Source: Sphagnum compactum (taxonomy: Eukaryota). From it: DNA of 64,000 bases. This document shows positions 6,202 through 50,745 of the stretch, in pieces (position 1 is the stretch's first letter; each line of letters starts with the position of its first letter). The notes beneath the pieces were generated by a model, which saw only the letters and a program-made list of their open reading frames with translations, was not told where the DNA came from and did not search any database. The position numbers and the translations under genes are program-made. The stretch is taken from assembly GCA_965153455.1 (NCBI GenBank), contig OZ234493.1, positions 14,994,213 through 15,058,212 of the forward strand, in the 5' to 3' direction.

Positions 6202-9200
6202 AGTTTAATTTGAACTAATTAAACTATCCACTTCCATGACCATTTAATATTACATCATGAATTAAATAATGTAAAATAATGTTTATTTTATACCTAAAAA
6301 TTAGGTTAGATCATAATGATAAATTTGAATTGACCATGAAATGTATAACTTCAATTTGAAGCAAAATGTATTAAAACCAAAGTAACCCAAGTACATGGCC
6401 TTTTAGATAAATTGTTTTCATTTCATGCATATAATACTTTTGCCAAAATTTTGATTTGTTAATTTATACTTTAGGTTGCAGAAGAAATTTCATGATTTTG
6501 AAAGACATTTAATTAAATATGCAATGGATTTGGTTTTAGAAATCATATGTAATGTTGCATGGGGTTTTAAAAAAGATCCATTGAGCAATTGGGGTTTTTT
6601 TATACATGGATATGAGGGATCCAAAAATTTTATTATAATTTTAGGAGTTGCCTTTCCATGGATGATCACATAGAGAACCTCTTGAATTTATTCTAGTGAC
6701 ACATATTTTTTCATGATTGATTGAATTAAATTTATGATGAAAAATAGGATAATAAATAATTAGTGTTTTTTTCGACCATTTTTTACATCGCTATGATAAG
6801 AAAAAACTCAATGTGAATTGCACAAAGGTTTTTTTGGGGAAAAAACTACAAAAGTCATCATATTTTGAGGAAAAAATGTCACATTTCACCATATTTTAAC
6901 ATTGAATTCCTATATTGGCCACTAGAACTAGGGAATTTTTTAAAAATATCTATTTTACTATCTCTTATGATAAGCAGTTTGCTAAAACAATAATTGTTGC
7001 CAAACCAAAACATAATAAATGAGGTTACACAATATTTGATAAAAGTAAATTGAATGGAATAAAATAAAATAATTTTATATAATGTCAAGGTTGACAAAAA
7101 CCTTGTTAGTATTATGCTTTTGTCCTTGTGTGTGTCATTGTGTGACCAATGCTGGGGATTCACAAGGAAGGATTCTCACGACAAGCCACATGGGGGAGGT
7201 GGCACAAAAGTGAGACACATGGCAATCATTGCAGTTGGCTTCAAGGTCATTAAAAGGTTGAAATTTGTGAACATCGTTTGATAACACAAGGCCCTTTTCC
7301 TATTGTGACAAATTCTAAAAAAGGGCCTCACGAACTAAATTTGAATCAAAATATTGTGTTCAATTGGTTTATAAGGTGTGGATACACACAAAAGAGCCAA
7401 TGGGATTACTTTACAAAAGGACTATGTGTTTTTTCTACTCTTTTTCCACTTTTTCATATGAAAGAATTTTTGGATGAAATCTTTCACAACTCGTTATTAA
7501 AAATACATATAGTCACCCCAATAGATCACATGTTTTGTGTTAATCATTGTTGAATAAATATGAAAATTTCAAAGTGTGTAAATTTTGCTAGATTTTGTGT
7601 TTCATTTTGAAAATTTATCATAATTGTGAACCATAGCAAAATATGCTAATTACTTTAGGTTTTTGTTTCTTGTGTCATAAATTACAATTTTGTTTTGTAT
7701 GTCATGCACATTACACCCCATTTACATGTGGTAAAAGACTTTTGAAATTTTAACATTTTAAAAAATATTTTGAATTTTAAAAAATTTCAAATTTCATATT
7801 TTTAAATCTTGTGAGTGCTCAAAAAACATTCATAATTTAGATTACTCCATATTTAGATTTGTGAATCAATTAACATAATTGGTTTGTATGTTTTTTTCTA
7901 GCCATTTTCTAGCATTATTTCCAGGTAGGAGAAGTGGTCAATTGTTGATTTCACTTTTGTTTCTATTAGTTCCACTTGTGATTGAAAAAAATTTCATTGT
8001 TGTTATTAGTCTATACCTAACATTTAAAAAATTCAAATTATATCATGGATGCATACATAAATAACAAATTTATAAAAAATATTTGACAATCCATCAAGCA
8101 AATTATAATAAGAATGTCTCTAAATAGTTGATTCAAAAGTTTTTAAAGTTGAAACCTAGATTGGAAACAAATTTATAATAGATGGTTATCCAGACATTAG
8201 TATCAAATGTTTCGAAACATATCTTGATTAATGTATTAAGTTGCTAAAGAGTGTTACAATATTTCAAGTTGTCAAAAAACTAGTATAAACATTATTACAA
8301 TGAACTTCCTCCAAATGAAGCATGTAACAACTTTGAAGTGTCATATGGTGCTATTGGAAATAGCATGATTTGAAACACACAATTAATACCCAATCCATTG
8401 AAGATGTGTCCAATTCAATTGTGAAAATCAATTTGATTGTCACAAGATGACAAAAATGGGCAAGATGAATGCACACACATTGTAACAACAATGAAACATT
8501 GTCAAATAACATCCTTGAACATCAATAATATCAATAAATTTGTCACCAAAAAGTTAGTAGTATCAATCATTAGATAACATTGTTGAACTCCACCACCATT
8601 AGTAGCTTTTTGTGATAATTGTTGAATCTCATTGTGTATTGAGTGTACTAATATTTCAAGCTTTCAATTCAAACTATGATTACACCATTTTAAATAGAAA
8701 AATCAAAATCCATATCATGAAGACCTCAACCATCCATATAATGATGCGAATTGAAAGGGGAATCAAACCAATTACGTTTTGGAACAAGTCTTGGAAGGAC
8801 CCATTAGCACCCAATGGAACAATGACTTGTCCTATGGGTTCATTGGATTCCTAGATGGAATGGGCATCACCCATAGTATATTAAAATCTTATTCTTATTT
8901 CATGTATGCAAGTGATTGGAAGTTTCTCCTAAGAGGAATAGGGTGATTAAATATTATTTACACATTTTGGCACTCTTATTATTAATACTTGACTCATTAT
9001 CACATTATGTTTTGCAGGTAACATTAAATCATGTGTTGCCAAGTGAAATGCACAACTCCACAAGAAAAGGCATAAAAAAAAACTCTCTTTGTGTAATGAA
9101 CAATTTTGACAATTTTGAAATTGTGAATAAAGTTCAATGTGCACTCAACTAAATCTTATATGTGTACTATTGTTGTGAAACTTAAAAGACTAAGTGCACA

Positions 9201-10625
9201 AGGCACATGCAAATTTAACTAAAGTCAAATTGCCTTTCATTAATTTAATTAATATTTAATTTTTTTGAATTTTATTAAAGTCAATTCTTTTTCTTATATT
9301 AAATTATCACTTGAAGGTTTTAAGTAGAGGGTTCATATAATGTATAAATTTGTCCATTCAACATGCATTCACCTTAAAACCAAAGTTCAATAAATGATGG
9401 AAGAGGAAGATGGACCGGATTTTAATTTTATTATTTATAACTTGAAAGCTCTTGCAATTGATAATCTCATGTCATGGGAATGTTGGGGGAAAATAACAAG
9501 ATCTTGTTTACGTTAAAAGAATTTAAAAATATGTTAGTGAACCTTAGATTATACATTGATGAAATTATGATTTAAGAAATTGAAGAGTATGAAAACTAAA
9601 TCCAAGAGGAGATTAGGAAGACATTGAAGTTTAGAATGAAAATTTTCAAGATTTCATAAATTTTTTCGTGCAATGATTTTGGTAAAGGAAATTGTGTGAA
9701 GTTCAATTTTTTATAGGTTCATAATTTTTTGCAAAAAAATGTCATGCATTTAAAACATGTATGAAGCATATATAAATAAAATGAAATATTTTCATCCACC
9801 CGATCGTCAAATGGGAAGTTTGTGATGACATTATAGCCCATTGAATTCATGGCACATTTTTTTTTGGCTTTAATTTAGATTTTGAATATTTCAAGAAAAA
9901 GCATATTAGACCATATTAGGCAATTGGTAAAAATATCATCATTGTGCAAAGAATTGGATTTGGAACCATCCCATCAATCCACAATGGGATTTGAACTAAA
10001 CCCAATTTGAAATTTTGTCATGAAAGGAATTGAAAACTCTTGCAATACTTTATATGTCTAATGGGAACTAGAGGTCTTCTTATGTAGGGCAAATAACCAT
10101 TTAAAACTTGTCATCATTAGCCTTTTTTTATTGGCCAAATATCACCAAAAAGCGAAACTAAAAATTCCAAAATGAAGTGTTTTTGAAATTTGGAGGGTTT
10201 CAATTGCCAAAAGCAAAGATTTTTTTTTTTTTTCTTCTATATTTTGATATTTGTCTTTCGATGTATAGCCATCAAAATAGAAGATTGGTTAAAGATTTTT
10301 TAAATTTCATATCTGGTTATAACCAGGTTTGGCTAAATCTTCCTAGGATGGTAACCACTTAGGCAAATAATAATAATAAAAAATCCTAAAAAAAGGCACT
10401 AAATCACCATAACTGGCAAAGGACCTTTTTGTGTTTAAACTTGATTAAGGAAAAAAAAAAAAAAAAAAAGATGCTGCCCCTGGGTGTGTTGTATTCACCC
10501 CAATTATTGGATTCTTCAGGAAAAAGCTGTGGCATGCACATGAGGTGCAGAAGGGGGTGTTTTAAAAATTTTTGGGGGGATTTTTGGGGACTTGGGAACA
10601 CAATACTAACAATGGGGCTGGTATA

Positions 10626-27639: not shown

Positions 27640-30375
27640 ATATAAAGAAAACAGTGATGATCACCAAGAATGGACTTTTTGAATGGCTAGTGATGCCATT
27701 TGGACAAAAAAATGCCATTAGCATCTTTTCCAAGGTGATGAATGAAATTTTCAGGAATGAGCTTGATAGTTTTGTGAAGGTTTTTGTAGATGACCTCAAC
27801 ATCCATAGCTTGGACTCAAACGAGCATCTACAACATTTACTTCCGGTGTTACAATGATTAAGAGAGGTGTACCTGAGGCTTAACCCTTCTAAATGTAAGA
27901 TTGGAGCTTCTGACATTGTGATTCTAGGCCACTTAGTTTGTGCTGCTGGAATTTGGCCTGATCCAAGCACAGTGGTAGCAGTACAAAACTTTCCAGCCCC
28001 TACAACTCCAACAAACATGAAGGCATCCCTAGGGTTCACAAGTTACTACAGGAATTTTATCAGAGGTTACAGTCGTGTGGCAGGACCTCTCTTCGAGCTA
28101 ATGTGCAAAGATGTGTCTTTTGTCTGGAGTAAGGCTTGACATCAATTTGCTTTTGAGGGGTTGAAGGAATGTCTGGTGTCAACTCCAATTGTGGTGAGAC
28201 TTAACTTCACCAAGCTGTTCATTTTGGATGTAGACTGGTCCACCAAAGGACTGGGGGCTGTTTTGTGTCAGGAGGATGGGAGAAAGGGAGTGGTTGTGGC
28301 TTATGCAAGTAAAGGCCTATCCAAGAGCCAAAAAAACTATCACCCAATGGAGGAGATCTGGGTTGTGATGCACTTTAGGCAATATCTACACCACATTGAT
28401 TTTATTCTGTGCATGGACCACAAGCCACTTGAGTGGTTGGTTATTGTGTCAGAAGCCCATGGCAGGAGGGGATGCTTGGTGAATATGCTCCAAGACTTTA
28501 GTTTATCAAGATCATCCACATGGCAAGAGGCAAACATACATACTGACACTTTAAGTAGGAATCTTGTTGGTATGCCTGAGGAGGATGAGGACTTTCAAGT
28601 TGAAATACCAGATATGAAGGTGATGATTTTCTCTGCAGTAGAAAGGGAAGAAGAATGGAGAGGCATGAGATGTCATGACTTGACAACGCAGCAAGTGGCT
28701 GCATGTAAATTGTTGCTTTGGGATAGATCATCAGACTTTGTGAGGAAGAAGAGCAGCATATTCCAGATATCTTTACCCTAGGTTCTGAGGGTGGCATCAA
28801 AGTTGAGGTGGCTTGGAGAGAAGAAGCTAAAACTGCAGTTGTGGAGCTCCTCCATAGTGGATGGCATAATGCATGTGCAGTTAGTCAACTGACAATGCTT
28901 ACAGCTGATCTGTACCACCTGATGCATGGTCTCAGTTCTCTTATGCCAAAAATATCATCTGTTGATTCTACTGTCATTACGTTGGACATGGGGTTCGGGT
29001 CCTGGGGATGCCAGGTACGTCTTCTCACAGGGTTATTATACCAAGTGCATCTCTCATTTAAATGGCCAAGTTGAACTTGCATGTTCTCCACCAACTGCCG
29101 TCTCTTTTCAAGCTTAGGTACCAACAAGCCTTTGTAGTACAATTAAACCTCCTACCAGTAATAGTTTAGTGCCCTCCTCCTAATGCGCTCCTTCTCCAAC
29201 TCTTCATAAACAGTAGGAATTTCCCCAGAGTTCAACATGGCCCATGCAGGCCCAATCCTGCCATATGTCCAGCCTCCTGGTCTTTTCATCCTCAACTCTG
29301 TGAGGAACATCAATGGTAGCTTGCCCCATGGTCTCACCAACCTCCCTATGTGCTTGCCTCATTAAGTGCCACTGCATTTCCTTGTCCATCTACAACTGAC
29401 TAGTTGTCATTCCAATCCTTCTAATCTTCTGCCCATCAATGCCATTATGTGAACTCTTTTATAGGGTGCCCTTGGACACCCTTTGCAAGAAACTAATAGA
29501 GGGAATAAATATGTTTTAGTGGTGGTGGATCACTACTCTAAGTGGGCATAAGCTAAGGTGGTGGCAGACCATGGTGTGGCTACTGCTGTGGAGTTTTTTT
29601 GAGTCAGAGATCATATGTTGATTTCCCAAGTATGCATTGACTCATATGGCTCTGAGTGGGCTGGGGAATTTCCTGCTTTGCGTGATATCTATGGATCACA
29701 CACCAACACACATCACCTTCACATCTCAATGGGATGGCAGAAAGGTTAATCAAGCTGATGATCAAACATGGATTAACAATGATTGCGGCAGTACATGGGC
29801 ATGAGGAGAACTGGGATGTGCAGCTATGGAGAGTCTTGTTTGGTGACAGGTGTGGGGTGTAGGAGAGCACCAAATTCTCACCTTACATGATCTTGACGTG
29901 GAGGAGTCCTTGATTAATGGATGACAACAGACTTGCTAAACTGTGTGAACCTGTGCAAAATGAGAAGAATAGTGATCAGATTGCTGAACAAATGGTTCCT
30001 AAACTGCAATTGATATTCAAGTATCCATGCTGCACTACTCACAAATGTGGAGGCGGCTCAGAAGAAGCAATTTCATACATATGCAACCCATGAAGGAAAA
30101 CAACTATTTGCTGGATTACAAGTGGAAAGCTGGGTAAAGATGAGGTGGCCTGTTAAAAAGAAGGGATGGAATGGTCTTGGGAATCTCCTTACAAGTTTGT
30201 AGGTTATCAAGATGAGCAAGGCTTTCAAAAGTTTGATGAAGGGGGGAGAGTGTGCATACTCCAAGACAGAGATGAGCAGGTTTGGAGAAGGCCCAGAAGC
30301 AACTTTCAAGTGTTCCAAGTATTCAAGCAACTTTCTGCAGCTGAAGCTGAATTTGTGAAGACCCAACATTTTTAA
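27640..30375 (+). mobile_element. Degenerate, 5'-truncated Ty3/Gypsy pol (RT, RNase H, integrase) with an internal inversion
   Basis: RT: TKNGLFEWLVMPFGQKNA..FVKVFVDDLNIHS. Connection: LRLNPSKC..LGFTSYYRNFI. RNase H: FILDVDWSTKGLGAVL..AYASKGL..MDHKPLEWL. Integrase core from ~29460: ETNRGNKYVLVVVDHYSKW. GPY-like tail WESPYKFVGY. The integrase Zn-binding segment lies on the minus strand at ~28885-29400. Confidence 0.92.
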
Positions 30376-42739: not shown

Positions 42740-43335
42740 GAGAGGAACATCAATAAAAGCTAATGATAAAAGATGACCATGATTTGGTTGTCTTTAATTT
42801 TTCATAAGAGTAATGACAGGGAGAAAAAAATACACAAAGACAATAGCTATGTGCCATCATTTTCGTGTCTTAGAGGAGCAAGAATAAGAAGTGAAAACAA
42901 CAACGATCTATGTGGTCATCGTCATTTTCTATTTTTCACAATAATGACGACAATGAGAAAATAAAAGATGCAAAGATGATAGCTATGTGTCGTCGTCTTC
43001 ATGTTTGAGAGGAATCAAAACAAGAGGTGAAAATAATGACAATCACAAATCATCGTTTTCTGTTTTTCATAGGAGTGACGACAAAAAGGAAAAAAAAACA
43101 CGAAGTTGACAACTATATGTTTGAGAGGAGTTGGAATAAAAGGTGAAGACAACAATGATTTTTGTGATCATCGTCATCTTTTGTTTTTCAAAGGCATAAT
43201 GCCAGGGAGAAAAAAACCCATGAAAACAACATTTGTATGCCATCATCTTTGTGTTTAAGAGGAGCTAGAAGAGGAGGTGAAAACGATGACAATCATAGAT
43301 CGTTAGACGTCATCTTCTGTTTTTCACAAGAGCTA
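42740..43335. repeat. Degenerate ~120-135 bp tandem repeat, ~5 copies
   Basis: Recurring AGAGGAR...GTGAARA...CATC...TGTTTTTCA units anchored near 42740, 42871, 43007, 43123 and 43257. Confidence 0.7.
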
Positions 43336-45832
43336 CAACGGGGAGGAAGATGAGGCCATAGTTATCATCTTCCTATCTAAAAGGATCAAGAACAAGAAGT
43401 GAAGAGGCAAAGATGGGGAGAAAAAAAAACACATGAAAAAAATAGAAGAGCACTTATAAGAGCTCTTGTCAGTCAAGAAAAAAAAAACCATGAAAACGAC
43501 AAGATAAAAAAAACAAGACATGGGTGTTATTCCTATGTTTGAATGTTGCTCTCAAGCACCATAGCTTAGCACTCCACATCTTGAGCACTCCATAGTTCGG
43601 CACTCCACAATTTAAACACTCCACAGCTTGAACATTCCATTCATGTCTATAGTGGAGTTCTAATGATGGGGGAAAGAAAATGAATTTAGGTTTAGGGGAG
43701 GTAGGTTTAGGTAGGGTGAATTCTTAGGTAGGAGGGAAAACTTTGGGGTCAAGAAGAAGGTTGAAAAAACCTTGGGCAAAGGAAGAGGAAAATAAAAATG
43801 CCCTACTTGGATGTGTTTGGGTTCATCCCAAAATGGCTTGCATGGTCTCTTCTTGAATTGGTGCACTAGTGGTTGTTAGTTCATTCTAGCACTGGAAGAA
43901 GACGTCTATCATGGCTTCATGTCAAAACATATTTTCAATACATGACACGCCATCCACAATGGAATTTTTAAATGTCATACAAAAGAAATTGACAAAAAGG
44001 TGTATTACTCCTCCCAGCATTTGGTACCCTGCGTAAACCATTGGCCGAATTTTATTTTTTACCTTTTATCTCATGGTAGGCTACCTATCCACTATCATGG
44101 GAAACAAATGAAAAGAGACTTGCACATTTTTATTTTTATTTTTAGAAATCTTTTAAATGCACATTTGTTGAGGACAAATTTCATTTGGTCATATCTCCAA
44201 GTACATTGAAAAAAATCTACCAATGTTTTGCAAGATTGAAAACATCAACAATGAACATTTTGAATAATACATTTAAAGTATTCTTCCAGTGGGAAATGGT
44301 AGGGTTCTAAAAGCATTCTAGAATAATAGATATTTGTGGAGGTAATTAGAATAATTTGAACACAAATAACATGGGAGAAGCAAATTATAAGGGAATTTGG
44401 GTAGACTCTTGGTGTTGTTGGAAAGGACTCATTGAATAGGATTTAATGAAGGTGATTTGAAAATGTTTAAACCTAAGGTCTAGGAGATAATGAATTTGTA
44501 GTCATTTTTGTCATTGGAAATTTAATCAAATTACTAAAAAAAGTTTTGAAAAGAAAATTTAATTGGTTAATCAATTCACATCTAAGCAAAGGCACATGGT
44601 ACACTGTATTCATTACCTTAAGCATAACCATTTAGATCTCCACTATAATCATATTCAGTGCAAAGGATGCAAGGATGATTTCGACATCTATCATATACCC
44701 TTTTGTGAATAAAGAAAATATACATTTTTGAAATGGTATGTACACAAAAACCAGTGTAGCAACCAAAGGTAGGTTGGTTGGTTACAAATTGTAAATGCTT
44801 TTATGGCAAAAATGTTTTTTTTTGGGTGTAGGTGCATCCAATTGGCTACACAAAGAATATTTTTCTCTAAATTTGGATATTATAATTTGTGTATGCTCGT
44901 AACTTGCTAGTAGCAAATTGAAGAATGTTGTTTGTTCAAATGGTTATATATTTTTTCAAGCTTTCAATTTAACTAATTACTGGATTTTGAGCAATGTAAC
45001 ATGGTGGCAATAACTACTTCAACAACAACTTGGGAAGTTTTGTGGCAATTGAATGTGAAACATTGTCGATCTACACTTTATTGCATAATCACCAGTATTT
45101 CATGAAATCCAAAGCTACCTATATTACTACTAAGAAATGCCATGAAATGCCTAGACGCCTTGTTGAGTGGGTATGTTGGGTTTGAGTTTGTTGATATTAA
45201 AACTATGCTACATCTTGAACTCATGCTGGTGTAGTTTTGTGTTATAACTTGTTAGGGAATTGAAAATTGAAAAATAATGCCTTATTTGTCCAACAAAAAA
45301 TTATATCACACATTTTTTATATGTTTAATTTCTAAGCCATAATTTTATTTTATTTCACAAGAAGGTCAATAATAATGCAGCTTCTTATATTTGAGTTGAG
45401 GAAGTTGAATTTGAAGTCAAAATGCAAAATGACATGCTTTTAGCTTTATGATGGCATGAATCTACCCTTCTTTCATTAGGTGGGTATAAGATCCGAATTT
45501 GTGAAATATTTATGATGGACACATGGTGATTCCATCAAGAAAGGTGCATGGTTTCTTTTGGCTCTACTTAGTGTTAAACTATGGGTGGACTCTTGATCAT
45601 ATGGTGTCAAGCCTAGGATGAAACATATTAATGGTATAGACCATACTAGATACTGAAATTTGGTACAAGGTATTTGGCTTTAAGAAACAGATCAGAATCT
45701 ATTTTAGAACTAGAAACAAACAATGAAACAACAGCCTAAATTGGTACCAAAAAAACCTCATATAACATTTAACACAATTCAATGGTACACACATGGTGAA
45801 CATAAAGCTTCATACTCTTGATGTACATTATT

Positions 45833-48755
45833 TCACATACCATTTGCTTGGTAGAAAGCTAAGCACAAATTATACTGTTTTACACCTTGAAAAAGTGTCA
45901 CTTGGAATGATATCATCATTGAATTCAATTTTGGAAATTCTTGTTCTTCAATGGCAAATGAAACCTTGGGGGGGGGGGATATTACATATATAATTTGCCA
46001 ATGATCTTCAATTAGGCACATCATGCTCAAATGTATGATTTCTTGAAGTTTGGTCATCAAACAATAAATTCAATTCAAGAAACTCTTTTTAAAACACAAT
46101 ATCATGTACCTTAATTCTTAGTTGCAATGCCCTTGTCATTTTAGTTGTTTAAGATTTTCGCCAACAATCACAAATGTTGTCTTAGTTGTTACCTGTCCAT
46201 TTGAGAAAATGAATAAGTCTAGTGATGTACTAATCCTTATAAACTTCACTTATTTTCAAGTGCACATAAAACTTTAAACAAAGCAAACCATATAACAAGG
46301 TAATACCCCCATTCCAGTATAATGGGCTAGTGTTTTATCTTGGATTCTTTACTTGGTTCTAAATATGGGAACACCTATTAATTTGCAGACCTGGGTGAAA
46401 GTATGATTGGGTGGACCCACTAGGAACACCTTCAAAAGACAATCAAGGAACAAAAATTAGCTAAATAATATTCCTAGGCCCTTTTCTTTAAATGTTTTCA
46501 TAATTATTATTTTTTTTTCATGTTTATTTATTGCATGCCAAAATATATGGCTTGAAGTTTCCATTACAATAACAAAAGGTGGAAATCATTACAATTTTGT
46601 ATTCCTTATTGATGTGGCCCCTTTAGGAATCAAGTTCTTAAACTTTGGAAATTCATAACTAAATTATACCTATTCAAATATTTATCCAATAAAAATATCA
46701 AATAGAATACCATTTAAAGTACCTCAGAAAATTATATCCACAAAAAAATACCCTAAACCTTGTTTGAAAAATGTTCCTAACCAAAAAGTTTAAGGAACAT
46801 AACCACTATTACTTTCCTAAAACTTTGTGTGAATATAATGAACAGGAACAAAAAAATTCAAAATGTTTTTTGCATTGTTGAAGTTTCAAAATCTATACAA
46901 CCTAATTAATGTATTCAACAAAAGAATTTATTAAAAACCTTTCTTTATGTGTTTCCTATATTTTTCCAAAGTTTGATGGGTTTTGAAAAATTAAGGTGTG
47001 ATGTTCCTTGTGGTACCACCCAATCATACTTTCACCCACTTATCCTCCATTAGCTTGGACAAACTATTCAACTTCTTCAGGATTCCTTGAACTCCCCTAT
47101 TATTACAACAACCTTGCCCTACAACTTTGACTCTAAAGCTGATTCAATATTGGAGTGTAGTGAGTTTATTTATAAAAAGTCTTCATTGCTCCTATGAACT
47201 CTCTCTTCAAACTCAATGGTTGGCACATGCATAAAAGTGATATCCCTATTTGTGAACTTTTGTATCTCGAGATTCCTAATAGATGGTGAGAATATTGCTT
47301 CTTGGAGTTTGTTCATAAACTAAATATTGAATGGGTCACAGCACCATTCCTTGATAGCAACTCTTGAGATCCTACTTATGCCTAGACAACAGGAAATTGT
47401 TTAATGACAAAAACTATTGTTTATTGTGTATAAAGAAAGAATTTGCAATAGATACAAAAGAATGGATCGAATCAATACCAACAATGGCATAGGTCCCATA
47501 AAGCCTTCAATATTGAAAGCTTAATTTTGAGTTAAAGTGCATCCTTTTGCTTAACCTTGTTATGGATGTGCAAAAAAAATTGATAGAAAAATGCCTTGCC
47601 CTTACGCTAATGACTAGCAATGATAATGAGAAAGAAACTTAGAATATGTAGAAATTCCTCTTCTTTTGCAAAAAACAGCATGTCCAAGCTCCCAAACCAT
47701 TTTTCTAGCAACTTAGTCACCACATTGCCAACAGTCGGGATGCCCAATGCAACTATCAACTCCCACAACAATTTTTGCTTACAAACCTACATAAGTGTGT
47801 TGTATTTCTATTTTAAAACCTACTTAAAGGTGAAATTTACATTAGCAACAAATGTGTATAAACACTTAATGGGGCTCACTTAAATTGCCTTCACCAACAT
47901 TTCATACATCTACAAAACTTGAATAGAAATACCAAGAGGGGCTAACCTCTATTGCCCACTAACTTCTCTGCACTTTTCTTTCCAAGGCCATCAAACTTTG
48001 ATAAGACCTTAGTGGTCAAAGTGTACAAATTAGAAGGATCACTCACCAACCCCTCATCTTGAAGTTGGTGTAGGATAAAGGGACCAAAGCCATGGATTAG
48101 ACATTTGGCAAAATGCTCAATCTACATATTCATTCATTGTGGAATCAATGTAAATGTAGTTGTAATCTAAAAAGAAAGAACACCAAGGAAAGAAATAGGG
48201 GACAAAAAAAATAATGAACAAATTACATGGCAAAAATGATGACCTGGGCATTTTGAATTACAACAATTTGTTACATGCTTATCCTTACTTGTAGTCAATT
48301 CCCCACCACACCATGGACATGTATTTAGTGGCACCCACAATTGCACACATGTTAACCTTAATTCTTTAAAAACATGCACCACTTGCAAAAGTGAACACCA
48401 AATGTGAAGGTTTGAGTTGGAGACCTAGAAAGGAAATTGCAAGCATAGGCAACCCTTGGAGTTACAATACTATATCAATTTAAGTCATTCCATTTTCATG
48501 CAGCTATTCAGTGCACTCAATTCTCCTTGTTCTTATTGAACATGAAAATGAACACAAATATAGTTGAATCCAAAGCCCAATTGGATGAGTAGAAGCAACT
48601 AGTAAAAAAAGATATGGAATCAAAGATATAGGATTGATAATTTTAAAAAAGATTTTTTTCTAGAACCTTACATAAGACTTACCTAGGGAATGACATCACT
48701 AGCATGTTGAATCACAACATGGTCACCTTCACAAATGTCCATTTTTAATTGTTTA
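45833..48755 (-). pseudogene. ligA: Intron-containing NAD+-dependent DNA ligase (LigA family), 5'-truncated pseudogene: OB-fold end, C4 zinc finger, HhH, BRCT
   Basis: Minus-strand exons in LigA domain order: ~48755-48683 KQLKMDICEGDHVVIQHASDVIP* then GTAAG; 48382-48227 VVHVFKELR..PLNTCPWCGGELTTSKDKHVTNCCNSKCPG; 48121-47947 IEHFAKCLIHGFGPFILHQLQDEGLVSDPSNLYTLTTKVLSKFDGLGKKSAEKLV..AIE; 47786-47639 KQKLLWELIVALGIPTVGNVVTKLLEKWFGSLDMLFFAKEEEFLHIL; 47381-~47039 ISRISRVAIKEWCCDPFNI*FMNKLQEA...SKL*GKVVVIIGEFKES..EEVE*FVQANGG; 46192-~46110 VTTKTTFVIVGEN..TKMTRALQLRIK; probable last exon near 45965-45833 AIEEQEFPKL. Carries stops, frameshifts, a CAG>CAA acceptor and a MITE insertion. Confidence 0.85.
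46392..47038. mobile_element. MITE-like non-autonomous element inserted in the ligase BRCT exon
   Basis: Terminal inverted repeats TGGGTGAAAGTATGATTGGGTGG (from 46392) and CCACCCAATCATACTTTCACCCA (to 47038), extending imperfectly to ~35 bp. AT-rich non-coding interior. No clear TSD. Confidence 0.8.
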
Positions 48756-49322
48756 CATACATGTTTACAACAAACAAGTACTTGAGGGGGAATTGAACCT
48801 CAATCCTTGTCAGGATTCTGCCCAGTGCAGCTCAAGCATTATTTGCAAGGTGAAAGCACACTATGGTGACCCCCTTTGGGACACTTTTGGGTCTAATATT
48901 ATAGTACATATAATATAATTGTCCAAAAGCATGTTACATTTAATTTTGGGTATCAATTTTGGTTTTTGGGCCTTACAACAATTATTTTTACAAAATCAAT
49001 GTTATGTAGTATTATTTAGAAAATAATAATGACTTTTATTATTTATATTGAAAGATCCATGAGTATATTTATAATATACATTGGTATAATAGGGTCACAA
49101 GGTGTGGATGAGTTCGAACAAGTGAAAATTGATGTCAAAACGTCAACTTTTTTGCAATTCTTGTTACATTTGTCTATGTGGTGCCACTTTAATGGCATGT
49201 GAATTATGGAAAGTTATGCTTATTGAATAATATGGATATTGAAAAGTCTAAAATGAATCAAACAAAATTCCAATATCAAAGTTTGGTTTGAATAAATGAT
49301 GTTTAAAAGTTTCATTCAATAA

Positions 49323-50745
49323 CACTACCATTAAAAGAAATCTTGTCCATTCCAACCATATGGTTACAACTATAGATGCGGTTAGTGTCCAAATCAATTA
49401 CTTTTACAACTATCATTAGGTTAGTCCTACGTGTCATTTTAGTTGTAAATGTGTGTAGTATATGTGATTATTGCAATCACATATGCGACTATAGTGTTGA
49501 TATAATCGAATGAAGTCGCAAATGTGACTATAATTTGTGACTATTACATGTTTGGATCAAAAGTAAAACGAAAATGCACATTTTTCATTCAATATTGTGA
49601 ATGGATCTTTGGATGAATGAAAACCTAATTGTTTTTCCAACTGGTCATAACTGTTTTGGCAACTACAACCATTAATTTTTCGATTTACAATATTTTGATG
49701 ATTAAAACATATGTGGCATCTTTGGAATTACAATATTTATTTAATAATCAAGTTGTGTCTAATTGTTTATTGGTGTTTTGTATTGTTTATTAACATGTTG
49801 ATAATACAAATTGTTATATATTTTAAAAATATATTTGAGTTATGATCTATTTATAAATATTATATATGATGATTATTTAGTTATATATTATACATGTAAA
49901 TTATATTATATTAATATAATTAAAACTTATTATAATCATAATTAGGTATGATATATTTTTCATTTATAAATCATGTGCTTGAAAAAAAAATTCCAACAAA
50001 TCATCATCAAAATGTAATTCAATTTAACAAAATTCAGAAAAAATTTATTCAAATTAATGTAAATTTTTGGAAGAGAAATCTATTTAATCGTGTATGTCAT
50101 TGAAAGTACTTTAAGAATCAATTTAAATTTTTTCATTCAGACAAATATTAATAAAATATGAAATATTGAAATTCATTTTTGTGTATGCTAAATAAAATGC
50201 ATTCCACTATATTTTTATATTAAATGGGGTGGTTTGATGGCAAAGGAATTGATATCCATCCTTAAAGTCTAAGGATCAAACCTCACAAGTAAGTGCCTAC
50301 TTAAGCCTACCTAGGTACCTAGATTAGGTGGCCTACCTAGTTACTTAAATTAGGGTTTTAGCCTAGCTTAGGTAGTGACATGTGTCAACAACTCATAAGT
50401 TGGAATTTATGAAATTACCAATAGTATGAATTATTATATTTGTTATTTATATAAATAATGTATTTAACAAATGTGATTTAAAAAATATTAAATCACTTAA
50501 ATTTAATTATTTAAAAAATGCTGCCTGATATTTTATGTAGTCATATTTGTAATTCCATAGTCCTACGACTAGTCAATGGATGAAAAATCATTGCAGTCGC
50601 AAGAGATATGTGACTACTAGTGTGACTATACATGCCATGTGGAGTTTTATGTGATTGGTTGTCTTTTGCCACTTGTCCAAAGTGACTACAAAATTTGTAG
50701 TTGCATGTGTCCATTACAAATAAAATTATGTTTTTTGTAATTAAA
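49323..50745. mobile_element. Probable non-autonomous CACTA-like element
   Basis: Starts CACTACC. Both ends are rich in GTGACTA/CAACTA/AGTCGCA subterminal-type motifs around an AT-rich core. Right TIR degenerate; no TSD confirmed. Confidence 0.4.

Follow-up and report, generated by a model that had tools for sequence, protein, structure and literature searches.

A decayed 3' fragment of a NAD+-dependent DNA ligase (LigA) gene in Sphagnum compactum, very probably an unprocessed genomic copy of the moss nuclear gene

The stretch of DNA analysed here, referred to as the window, is a 64-kb piece of the Sphagnum compactum contig OZ234493.1 (positions 14,994,213 to 15,058,212). Coordinates below are positions in the window, and the fragment under study lies on its minus strand. 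Window 48745-46008 holds the last six exons (11-16 of 16) of a gene for a LigA-type NAD+-dependent DNA ligase. These exons comprise the end of the OB fold, the C4 zinc finger, the HhH domain and the BRCT domain, and the canonical LigA order is retained. The locus is very probably an unprocessed, truncated pseudogene, which was copied as genomic DNA from the moss nuclear LigA gene and has since decayed. The fragment is dead, with no open reading frame (ORF) able to give protein.

A word-based protein search with one exon led to P0002, a protein of S. compactum with 1103 residues and 85% identity. A scan of metagenome contigs with P0002 yielded three genomic copies of the intact gene (L003, L004 and L006), a 5' half (L002) and contig L001. 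The latter covers P0002 residues 1-1103 in one high-scoring segment pair, and each intron of L003 and L004 is spliced out in it. The six exon borders of the fragment were set by blastn and alignment to this RNA-like contig, which gives the following layout.

Exon 11 remnant, 48683-48745, minus strand: end of the OB fold, ..KMDICEGDHVVIQHASDVIP*; blastn to L001 5169-5233, tblastn to P0002 742-761.
Intron 11, 48383-48682, minus strand: donor GT kept, acceptor changed from CAG to CAA; continuous homology to the intron of L004, L003 and L006, absent from L001.
Exon 12, 48227-48382, minus strand: linker and C4 zinc finger (CPWCGG...NCCNSKCP); blastn to L001 5229-5386, tblastn, TIGR00575 positions 373-423.
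Intron 12, 48122-48226, minus strand: GT..AG kept; aligns to the parent locus, absent from L001.
Exon 13, 47947-48121, minus strand: first part of the HhH domain (IHGFG, FDGLGKKSAEKL); blastn to L001 5386-5569 at 91%, NCBIfam LigA models with E = 1.7e-7 to 3.8e-6.
Intron 13, 47787-47946, minus strand: GT..AG kept; aligns to the parent locus.
Exon 14, 47639-47786, minus strand: HhH (ALGIPTVG..KLLEKWFGSL); Pfam HHH_2 with E = 2.4e-8 and 34.5 bits, blastn to L001 5563-5709 at 90%.
Intron 14, 47382-47638, minus strand: phase 1, GT..AG kept.
Exon 15, main part, 47038-47381, minus strand: end of HhH, bryophyte-specific linker and start of BRCT (GKVVVIIG..ANGG); blastn to L001 5712-6061 at 85%.
Miniature inverted-repeat transposable element (MITE)-like insertion in exon 15, 46394-47037, no strand assigned: about 645 bp, with 37-nt terminal inverted repeats (92% complementary) found by repeat search.
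Exon 15, tail, 46379-46393, minus strand: last 15 nt, severed by the MITE; donor changed from GT to AT at 46378-46377.
Intron 15, 46193-46378, minus strand: acceptor AG kept.
Exon 16, coding part, 46008-46192, minus strand: remainder of BRCT and C-terminus (VTTKTTFVIVGEN...VHDIVF*KEFLELNLL...); tblastn to P0002 1059-1102, blastn to L001 from 6071 onwards.
Homologue of the 3' untranslated region (UTR), 45762-46007, minus strand: aligns to L001 past its stop at 6254, up to the contig end.
Downstream homology to the parent locus, 45318-45761, minus strand: 72-75% identity by blastn and alignment; the duplicated segment ends near 45318.

This layout revises the exon model of the original prediction, which had been made from the letters of the window. 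All peptide strings quoted there are present in minus-strand frames of the window. Six of the proposed six to seven exons are real according to the L001 borders, whereas the seventh (VSFAIEEQEF, at about 45.96 kb) lies past the parent stop in sequence homologous to the 3' UTR. The string IEEQEF had been taken as the end of the BRCT domain; in fact, the BRCT exon continues without a break into the true C-terminus, and the TGA at 46010-46008 in exon 16 coincides with the stop position of the parent. The start of the second exon as originally drawn (VSNSNLHIWCSLL) is intron, and the large intron placed before VTTKTT consists of an ordinary intron of about 190 bp plus the 645-bp MITE.

The order of the C-terminal LigA modules had been read correctly. 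When the pieces of the window were scanned singly, the NCBIfam LigA model PRK07956 was matched collinearly at positions 360-379, 380-429, 445-491 and 498-543. A tblastn search of the window with full-length P0002 aligned residues 742-1102 in collinear blocks (E-values 7.5e-5, 6.7e-43, 1.2e-18, 4.9e-36 and 4.4e-17) with 61-85% identity per block, the block of 61% identity spanning an unspliced intron. The zinc finger in exon 12 has all four cysteines, and the same columns are invariant in a 12-sequence LigA alignment. Profile matching, proposed earlier as a check of the identification, supported it in part. Besides the collinear NCBIfam matches, HHH_2 exceeded its Pfam gathering score (34.5 vs 27 bits), whereas DNA_ligase_OB (18.1 vs 32.9) and HHH_5 (17.6 vs 27) stayed below theirs and the BRCT pieces scanned on their own gave no Pfam match. 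Since the single-piece profile matches are mostly sub-threshold, the identification rests on the comparisons with the parent gene, and the tblastn and blastn matches in these comparisons are far beyond chance. Residues 1-741 of P0002 have no above-chance tblastn match anywhere in the 64-kb window; the fragment is without the adenylation domain, which carries the KxDG lysine, and without the NAD+-binding domain Ia.

At the DNA level, window 48745-47038 aligns by blastn as a single block of 1733 nt, exons and introns included, to L003, L004 and L006 (84.6-85.4% identity, E = 0; 86.8-87.3% after alignment with MAFFT). Four introns lie inside this block and the fifth in the next one, window 46393-45528, which matches the parent genomic contigs at about 75% identity; window 45518-45318 matches the parent locus again further downstream. 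Some 1.1 kb of sequence that follows the parent gene (L004 12271-13368) is not matched in the window; it was either inserted at the parent locus or deleted from the copy. At the 5' end, the match to L004 begins at 9701 and the parent exon at 9689, so that the breakpoint lies 12 nt into exon 11 and the copy is without the first 12 nt of that exon. All five sequences between the exons are genuine spliceosomal introns, with base-for-base homology to those of the intact Sphagnum gene, and none of them is present in the intron-less contig L001. Bacterial contamination is ruled out on this ground, as had been argued from the introns beforehand. The copy diverges by about 13% from each of L003, L004 and L006, compared to 1-3% among those three, which indicates that the duplication predates the split of those Sphagnum-type lineages.

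The copy contains seven premature in-frame stops, five of which were called by script in the parent frame, while two further ones were read off alignments. The stop at 48685-48683 is the final codon of exon 11 (TAG in the copy, CAG in the parent), those at 47322, 47172, 47121, 47066 and 47042-47040 (TAA) are located in exon 15 and the one at 46091 in exon 16. Three deletions shift the coding frame: 2 nt after 47957 (exon 13), 5 nt after 47080 (exon 15) and 1 nt after 46148 (exon 16). Two splice sites, the intron 11 acceptor and the intron 15 donor, are lost. Compared to the parent, identity is 86.0% in exons and 84.8% in introns. Among 358 codons compared, 85 nonsynonymous and 34 synonymous differences were counted, and the substitutions comprise 252 transitions and 84 transversions. 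The substitution pattern in the fragment is neutral, and exon and intron divergence are equal. The stops and deletions seen in the alignments, together with the missing counterpart of P0002 residues 1-741, bear out the earlier view of a dead copy without adenylation domain. Most likely, the fragment makes no ligase and does nothing. A poly-A RNA run with the same species label (X22), of which about 12% was read, gave 0 reads on the fragment at 95% likeness, a result that carries no weight as to its expression.

The segment 46394-47037 is a MITE, a non-autonomous DNA transposon, inserted in exon 15. It has no long ORF (the longest comprises 65 aa), it appears as an alignment gap in the parent sequences L003, L004, L006 and L001, and contig word depth over it is 495-2346 vs about 42-138 in the flanks (10-50x). 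The insertion is flanked by AAGT and AGGT, compared to a single CAAGT in the parent. A 4-bp target duplication is a possible but uncertain explanation of these ends, as the length is ambiguous and one copy would be mutated.

According to the history that we propose, a genomic segment of about 3.5 kb, comprising the last six exons, five introns, the 3' UTR and some downstream sequence, would have been copied here from the moss's own nuclear gene for a NAD+-dependent LigA-type ligase. Given a start 12 nt inside exon 11, promoter and start codon would have been missing from the copy at the outset, as would domain Ia, the adenylation domain and the greater part of the OB fold. The segment was probably duplicated as DNA, by a segmental or repair-mediated process, and not by retroposition. 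Neutral drift would then have brought stops, frameshifts and the loss of splice sites, and the MITE would have landed in exon 15.

Plain duplication has to be weighed against capture and movement of the fragment by a transposable element of the Pack-MULE, CACTA or Helitron type, for which the sequence upstream of the 5' breakpoint is relevant:

Unique non-homologous stretch of about 100 bp, 48746-48848: between the fragment breakpoint and the upstream repeat.
High-copy repeat, 48849-49400 and beyond, no strand assigned: word depth 1466-3837 vs about 42-138 in flanks; loose ends at 48849 and 48880.

A high-copy repeat that starts about 100 bp upstream of the breakpoint, in a transposon-rich region, and a breakpoint inside an exon, as is common for captured fragments, would both suit such a capture. 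However, the repeat search found no terminal inverted or direct repeats bracketing 45.3-48.75 kb, the word depth of the fragment equals that of its unique flanks, and about 100 bp of unique sequence separate it from the upstream repeat. We therefore regard transposon capture as unlikely. It is considerably less probable still that the fragment is transcribed, whether by itself or under a neighbouring promoter, and serves as a non-coding RNA or as a source of small interfering RNA that modulates the parent LigA. The identity of about 87% to the parent over 1.7 kb would permit cross-targeting by small RNAs, and nothing else speaks for such a role; the fragment evolves like introns, and the promoter-bearing 5' part of the gene was not copied.

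We assign the lowest probability of all, close to nil, to an origin as a processed retrocopy, from recent bacterial DNA or as the insert of a giant virus. Genes of the LigA type do usually belong to bacteria or viruses, and remains of a retroelement (RT_RNaseH, 28.1-28.8 kb) occur in the window, but a retrocopy and direct bacterial DNA are excluded by the five introns, each of which is still in place and homologous to its counterpart in the plant locus. With regard to a giant virus, the full-length LigAs in IMG/VR share at most 36% identity (one partial sequence reaches 41%) and group with bacterial clades. An unprocessed copy of genomic DNA remains the preferred explanation. Four points weigh against it to some degree. 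Exon by exon, a curated Pfam threshold was passed by one domain only, HHH_2. The evidence for an intact parent comes from records of related Sphagnum and from metagenome contigs rather than from the genome of the window itself. The presumed RNA origin of L001 follows solely from its lack of every intron. The mechanism of copying is likewise a deduction: no flanking inverted or direct repeats mark a capturing transposon, yet a repeat lies about 100 bp upstream.

In the remainder of the window, an ORF at 28140-28781 on the plus strand with RT_RNaseH and RT_RNaseH_2 (E of about 2e-19) represents the remains of a long terminal repeat retrotransposon. It sits in a GC-richer block at about 12-38 kb; a second such block extends over about 52-60 kb. 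A Pfam scan of the window's other large ORFs gave RT_RNaseH at 28.1-28.8 kb only, and the other five ORFs had no match. Window 43001-43350 contains three tandem units of about 116-136 bp with 65-78% identity (repeat families D1 and D2). A tRNA-derived short interspersed element upstream of the breakpoint, considered on account of a GGTTCAATTCC-like string, was rejected, as ARAGORN found no tRNA in the window.

The intact parent that had been predicted to exist elsewhere was found in four Sphagnum species as well as in other mosses and liverworts, with the KxDG motif, the domain Ia motif, the C4 zinc finger, HhH and BRCT. In P0002, the Pfam families DNA_ligase_aden (1.4e-73), OB (6.8e-28), HHH_2 (2.6e-17), HHH_5 and BRCT (1.2e-13) score above their cut-offs, while Nlig-Ia falls below (23.6 vs 27 bits, 8.3e-5). 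The match of P0002 to Escherichia coli LigA (PDB 2owo) has an E-value of 2.1e-127, with the KxDG lysine and the D-x-x-Y-D motif of domain Ia in register. Judged by these features, P0002 is a complete LigA. Its 90% cluster holds full-length models from S. compactum, S. fallax, S. magellanicum and S. balticum, labelled only "hypothetical" or "unnamed"; gene records are available for S. fallax (BDL97_10G025300) and S. magellanicum (CY35_10G021800).

Comparison of L001 with L003 and L004 divides the coding region of the parent into 16 coding blocks and 15 introns. L001 has an in-frame stop 27 codons upstream of the first methionine and appears to be RNA-derived, given its intron-less structure. 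As far as these records tell, the parent is an intact, spliced and transcribed nuclear gene of 16 exons with a long N-terminal extension. Six more spliced blocks upstream of the LigA start codon were observed when L001 501-2190 was compared with L004 233-3492; they represent either a long multi-exon 5' UTR or a co-assembled neighbouring transcript. P0001 (145 aa, from a contig of 1993 bp) is a prokaryote-style gene call in which exons 13 and 14 are joined seamlessly, with the reading frame running on into the introns at either side. It appears to stem from a Sphagnum LigA transcript from which only some introns had been removed. Peptide patterns shared with the plant gene also led to another metagenome contig, L005, whose LigA is only 31% identical to the Sphagnum protein, is not related to the plant clade and stands outside the trees described below.

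A database search with the ligase part of P0002, in which the 8000 candidates sharing most words were scored and 120 matches listed, extends the family beyond Sphagnum. The orthologue of the moss Physcomitrium patens shares 61-62% identity and carries the UniRef name "DNA ligase (NAD(+))". Orthologues of the liverworts Riccia sorocarpa, R. fluitans, Marchantia polymorpha ("DNA ligase (NAD+)"), M. paleacea and Calypogeia fissa share 51-52%. The surmise that bryophyte homologues might already be annotated automatically thus proved right, in some cases even under the name of the enzyme. After the bryophytes, the listed matches drop to proteins of prokaryotic length with at most 42% identity, the named bacterial ones being Chloroflexi, Anaerolineae, Chloroflexus, Methylomarinovum and Bacillota. 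No hornwort, vascular plant or alga is among the 120 matches listed from the 8000 word-richest candidates, which is suggestive of an absence of LigA from these groups.

Residues K482, D393 and D397 and the four cysteines of the zinc finger are the same in all 12 aligned sequences; in domain Ia, Y396 is replaced by F in Marchantia. All bryophyte LigAs have a 3-residue deletion at the start of HhH (HFAK.---LI.GLG), and HhH and BRCT are separated in them by an insert of about 50-60 residues that is poorly conserved. The N-terminal extension measures about 310-360 residues and places the Ia motif at residue 342-391, compared to 31-36 in bacteria; in the Calypogeia model the motif is located at residue 844. 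The extension opens with a conserved M-x-R-x-V-G-R, and its first 80 residues contain 9-16 R+K vs 2-5 D+E and 12-19 Ser+Thr. Such an N-terminus, basic and rich in Ser and Thr, would suit a transit peptide for an organelle. That the parent protein uses NAD+ as adenylate donor is suggested by the conserved motif of domain Ia, and it may have an organellar, NAD+-dependent role in nick sealing.

The origin of the family was assessed with two trees, a FastTree phylogeny of 122 rows (9 bryophyte proteins, 40 database matches, 55 of 80 GTDB loci and 18 of 56 viral loci) and an IQ-TREE phylogeny of 46 rows under LG+C20. The GTDB sample consists of 80 loci from at least 600 matches and contains no cyanobacterium or alphaproteobacterium. 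In both trees the bryophyte proteins form one clade (support 99 and 100) with a split between mosses and liverworts, which indicates a bacterial-type family inherited vertically since the common ancestor of both. The clade has a long stem (0.7 and 1.55) and joins an unresolved base among Chloroflexota, Actinomycetota and other bacteria. A bacterial source of the family is suggested by this placement, with the donor placed no closer than the base of the sampled bacteria in trees without cyanobacteria or alphaproteobacteria. Either mosses and liverworts would owe the gene to a bacterium from which it was acquired before the two lineages separated, or hornworts and vascular plants would have lost it. 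The transfer may have been horizontal or endosymbiotic. A viral origin was rejected: the viral LigAs fall into bacterial clades in both trees, and none of the 56 IMG/VR relatives (identities as given above for the giant-virus insert) groups with the bryophytes.

The locus itself is routine. Its value for annotation is that it should be masked as a pseudogene, and not be taken for a horizontal-transfer candidate or contamination. Beyond that, the fragment is a pointer to a conserved, intron-rich and apparently transcribed LigA family across mosses and liverworts. The parent family is already present in public annotation, yet undiscussed in the literature as far as searched. The literature searches, which were partly unselective, returned no paper mentioning LigA or a NAD-dependent ligase in a bryophyte, and supplementary tables of horizontal-transfer surveys or organelle proteomes may list the gene. 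To our knowledge, the textbook plant DNA ligases are all ATP-dependent. In the passages of Moriyama and Sato 2014 (PMC4166229) that deal with ligases, LIG1 is the sole organellar ligase listed for P. patens and other plants, "the plastid ligase remains unclear" and LigA is named only as the E. coli enzyme; the corresponding part of a 2021 review (PMC8383295) likewise gives LIG1 only.

Against this background, it is conceivable, if somewhat short of probable, that mosses and liverworts, and no other plants in the databases searched, keep an expressed 16-exon LigA that may act as a nick-sealing NAD+-dependent ligase in plastids, mitochondria or both. If true, LigA would fill the plastid-ligase gap noted in the reviews, and the maintenance of organelle DNA in setaphytes would depend on NAD+ rather than ATP. 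Our view of how bryophytes replicate and repair organelle DNA would change with an organelle-targeted, NAD+-dependent enzyme, which would also count as a clean, anciently domesticated bacterial replication gene among the acquisitions of land plants. Specialist interest would be limited to this putative organellar, NAD+-dependent role of the parent family. The organellar question is directly testable, since genes can easily be knocked out in both Physcomitrium and Marchantia.

Compared to bacterial LigA (E. coli, PDB 2owo), the parent shares the domain order Ia, adenylation, OB, C4 zinc finger, HhH and BRCT, but differs by its 15 spliceosomal introns, the N-terminal extension, the HhH deletion and the insert before BRCT. 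The window copy keeps the order of OB end, zinc finger, HhH and BRCT, is without the residues before 742 and is disabled. The automatically annotated bryophyte "DNA ligase (NAD(+))" genes of Physcomitrium patens, Marchantia polymorpha, Riccia spp. and Sphagnum represent the source family of the fragment; unlike these intact genes, the window copy comprises the 3' part only and is disrupted by seven stops, three frameshifts and a MITE.

A precedent for a bacterial-type ligase that is nuclear-encoded and sent to a DNA-containing organelle is provided by Paulinella, for which the ligase entries of PMC9450145 describe nuclear-encoded NAD-dependent DNA ligases (EC 6.5.1.2) with chromatophore or mitochondrial targeting peptides. 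The same logic may apply to bryophytes, although lineage and organelle differ and the trees contain no Paulinella sequence. Plant LIG1 has the same job that is proposed here for LigA, the sealing of nicks in organelle DNA, but it is ATP-dependent and of eukaryotic type; the ligase passages of PMC4166229 name LigA for no plant. With unprocessed plant pseudogene fragments, the window copy shares the retained introns, the 5' truncation, the disabling mutations and the neutral substitution pattern, and it differs from them by the identity of its parent gene alone.

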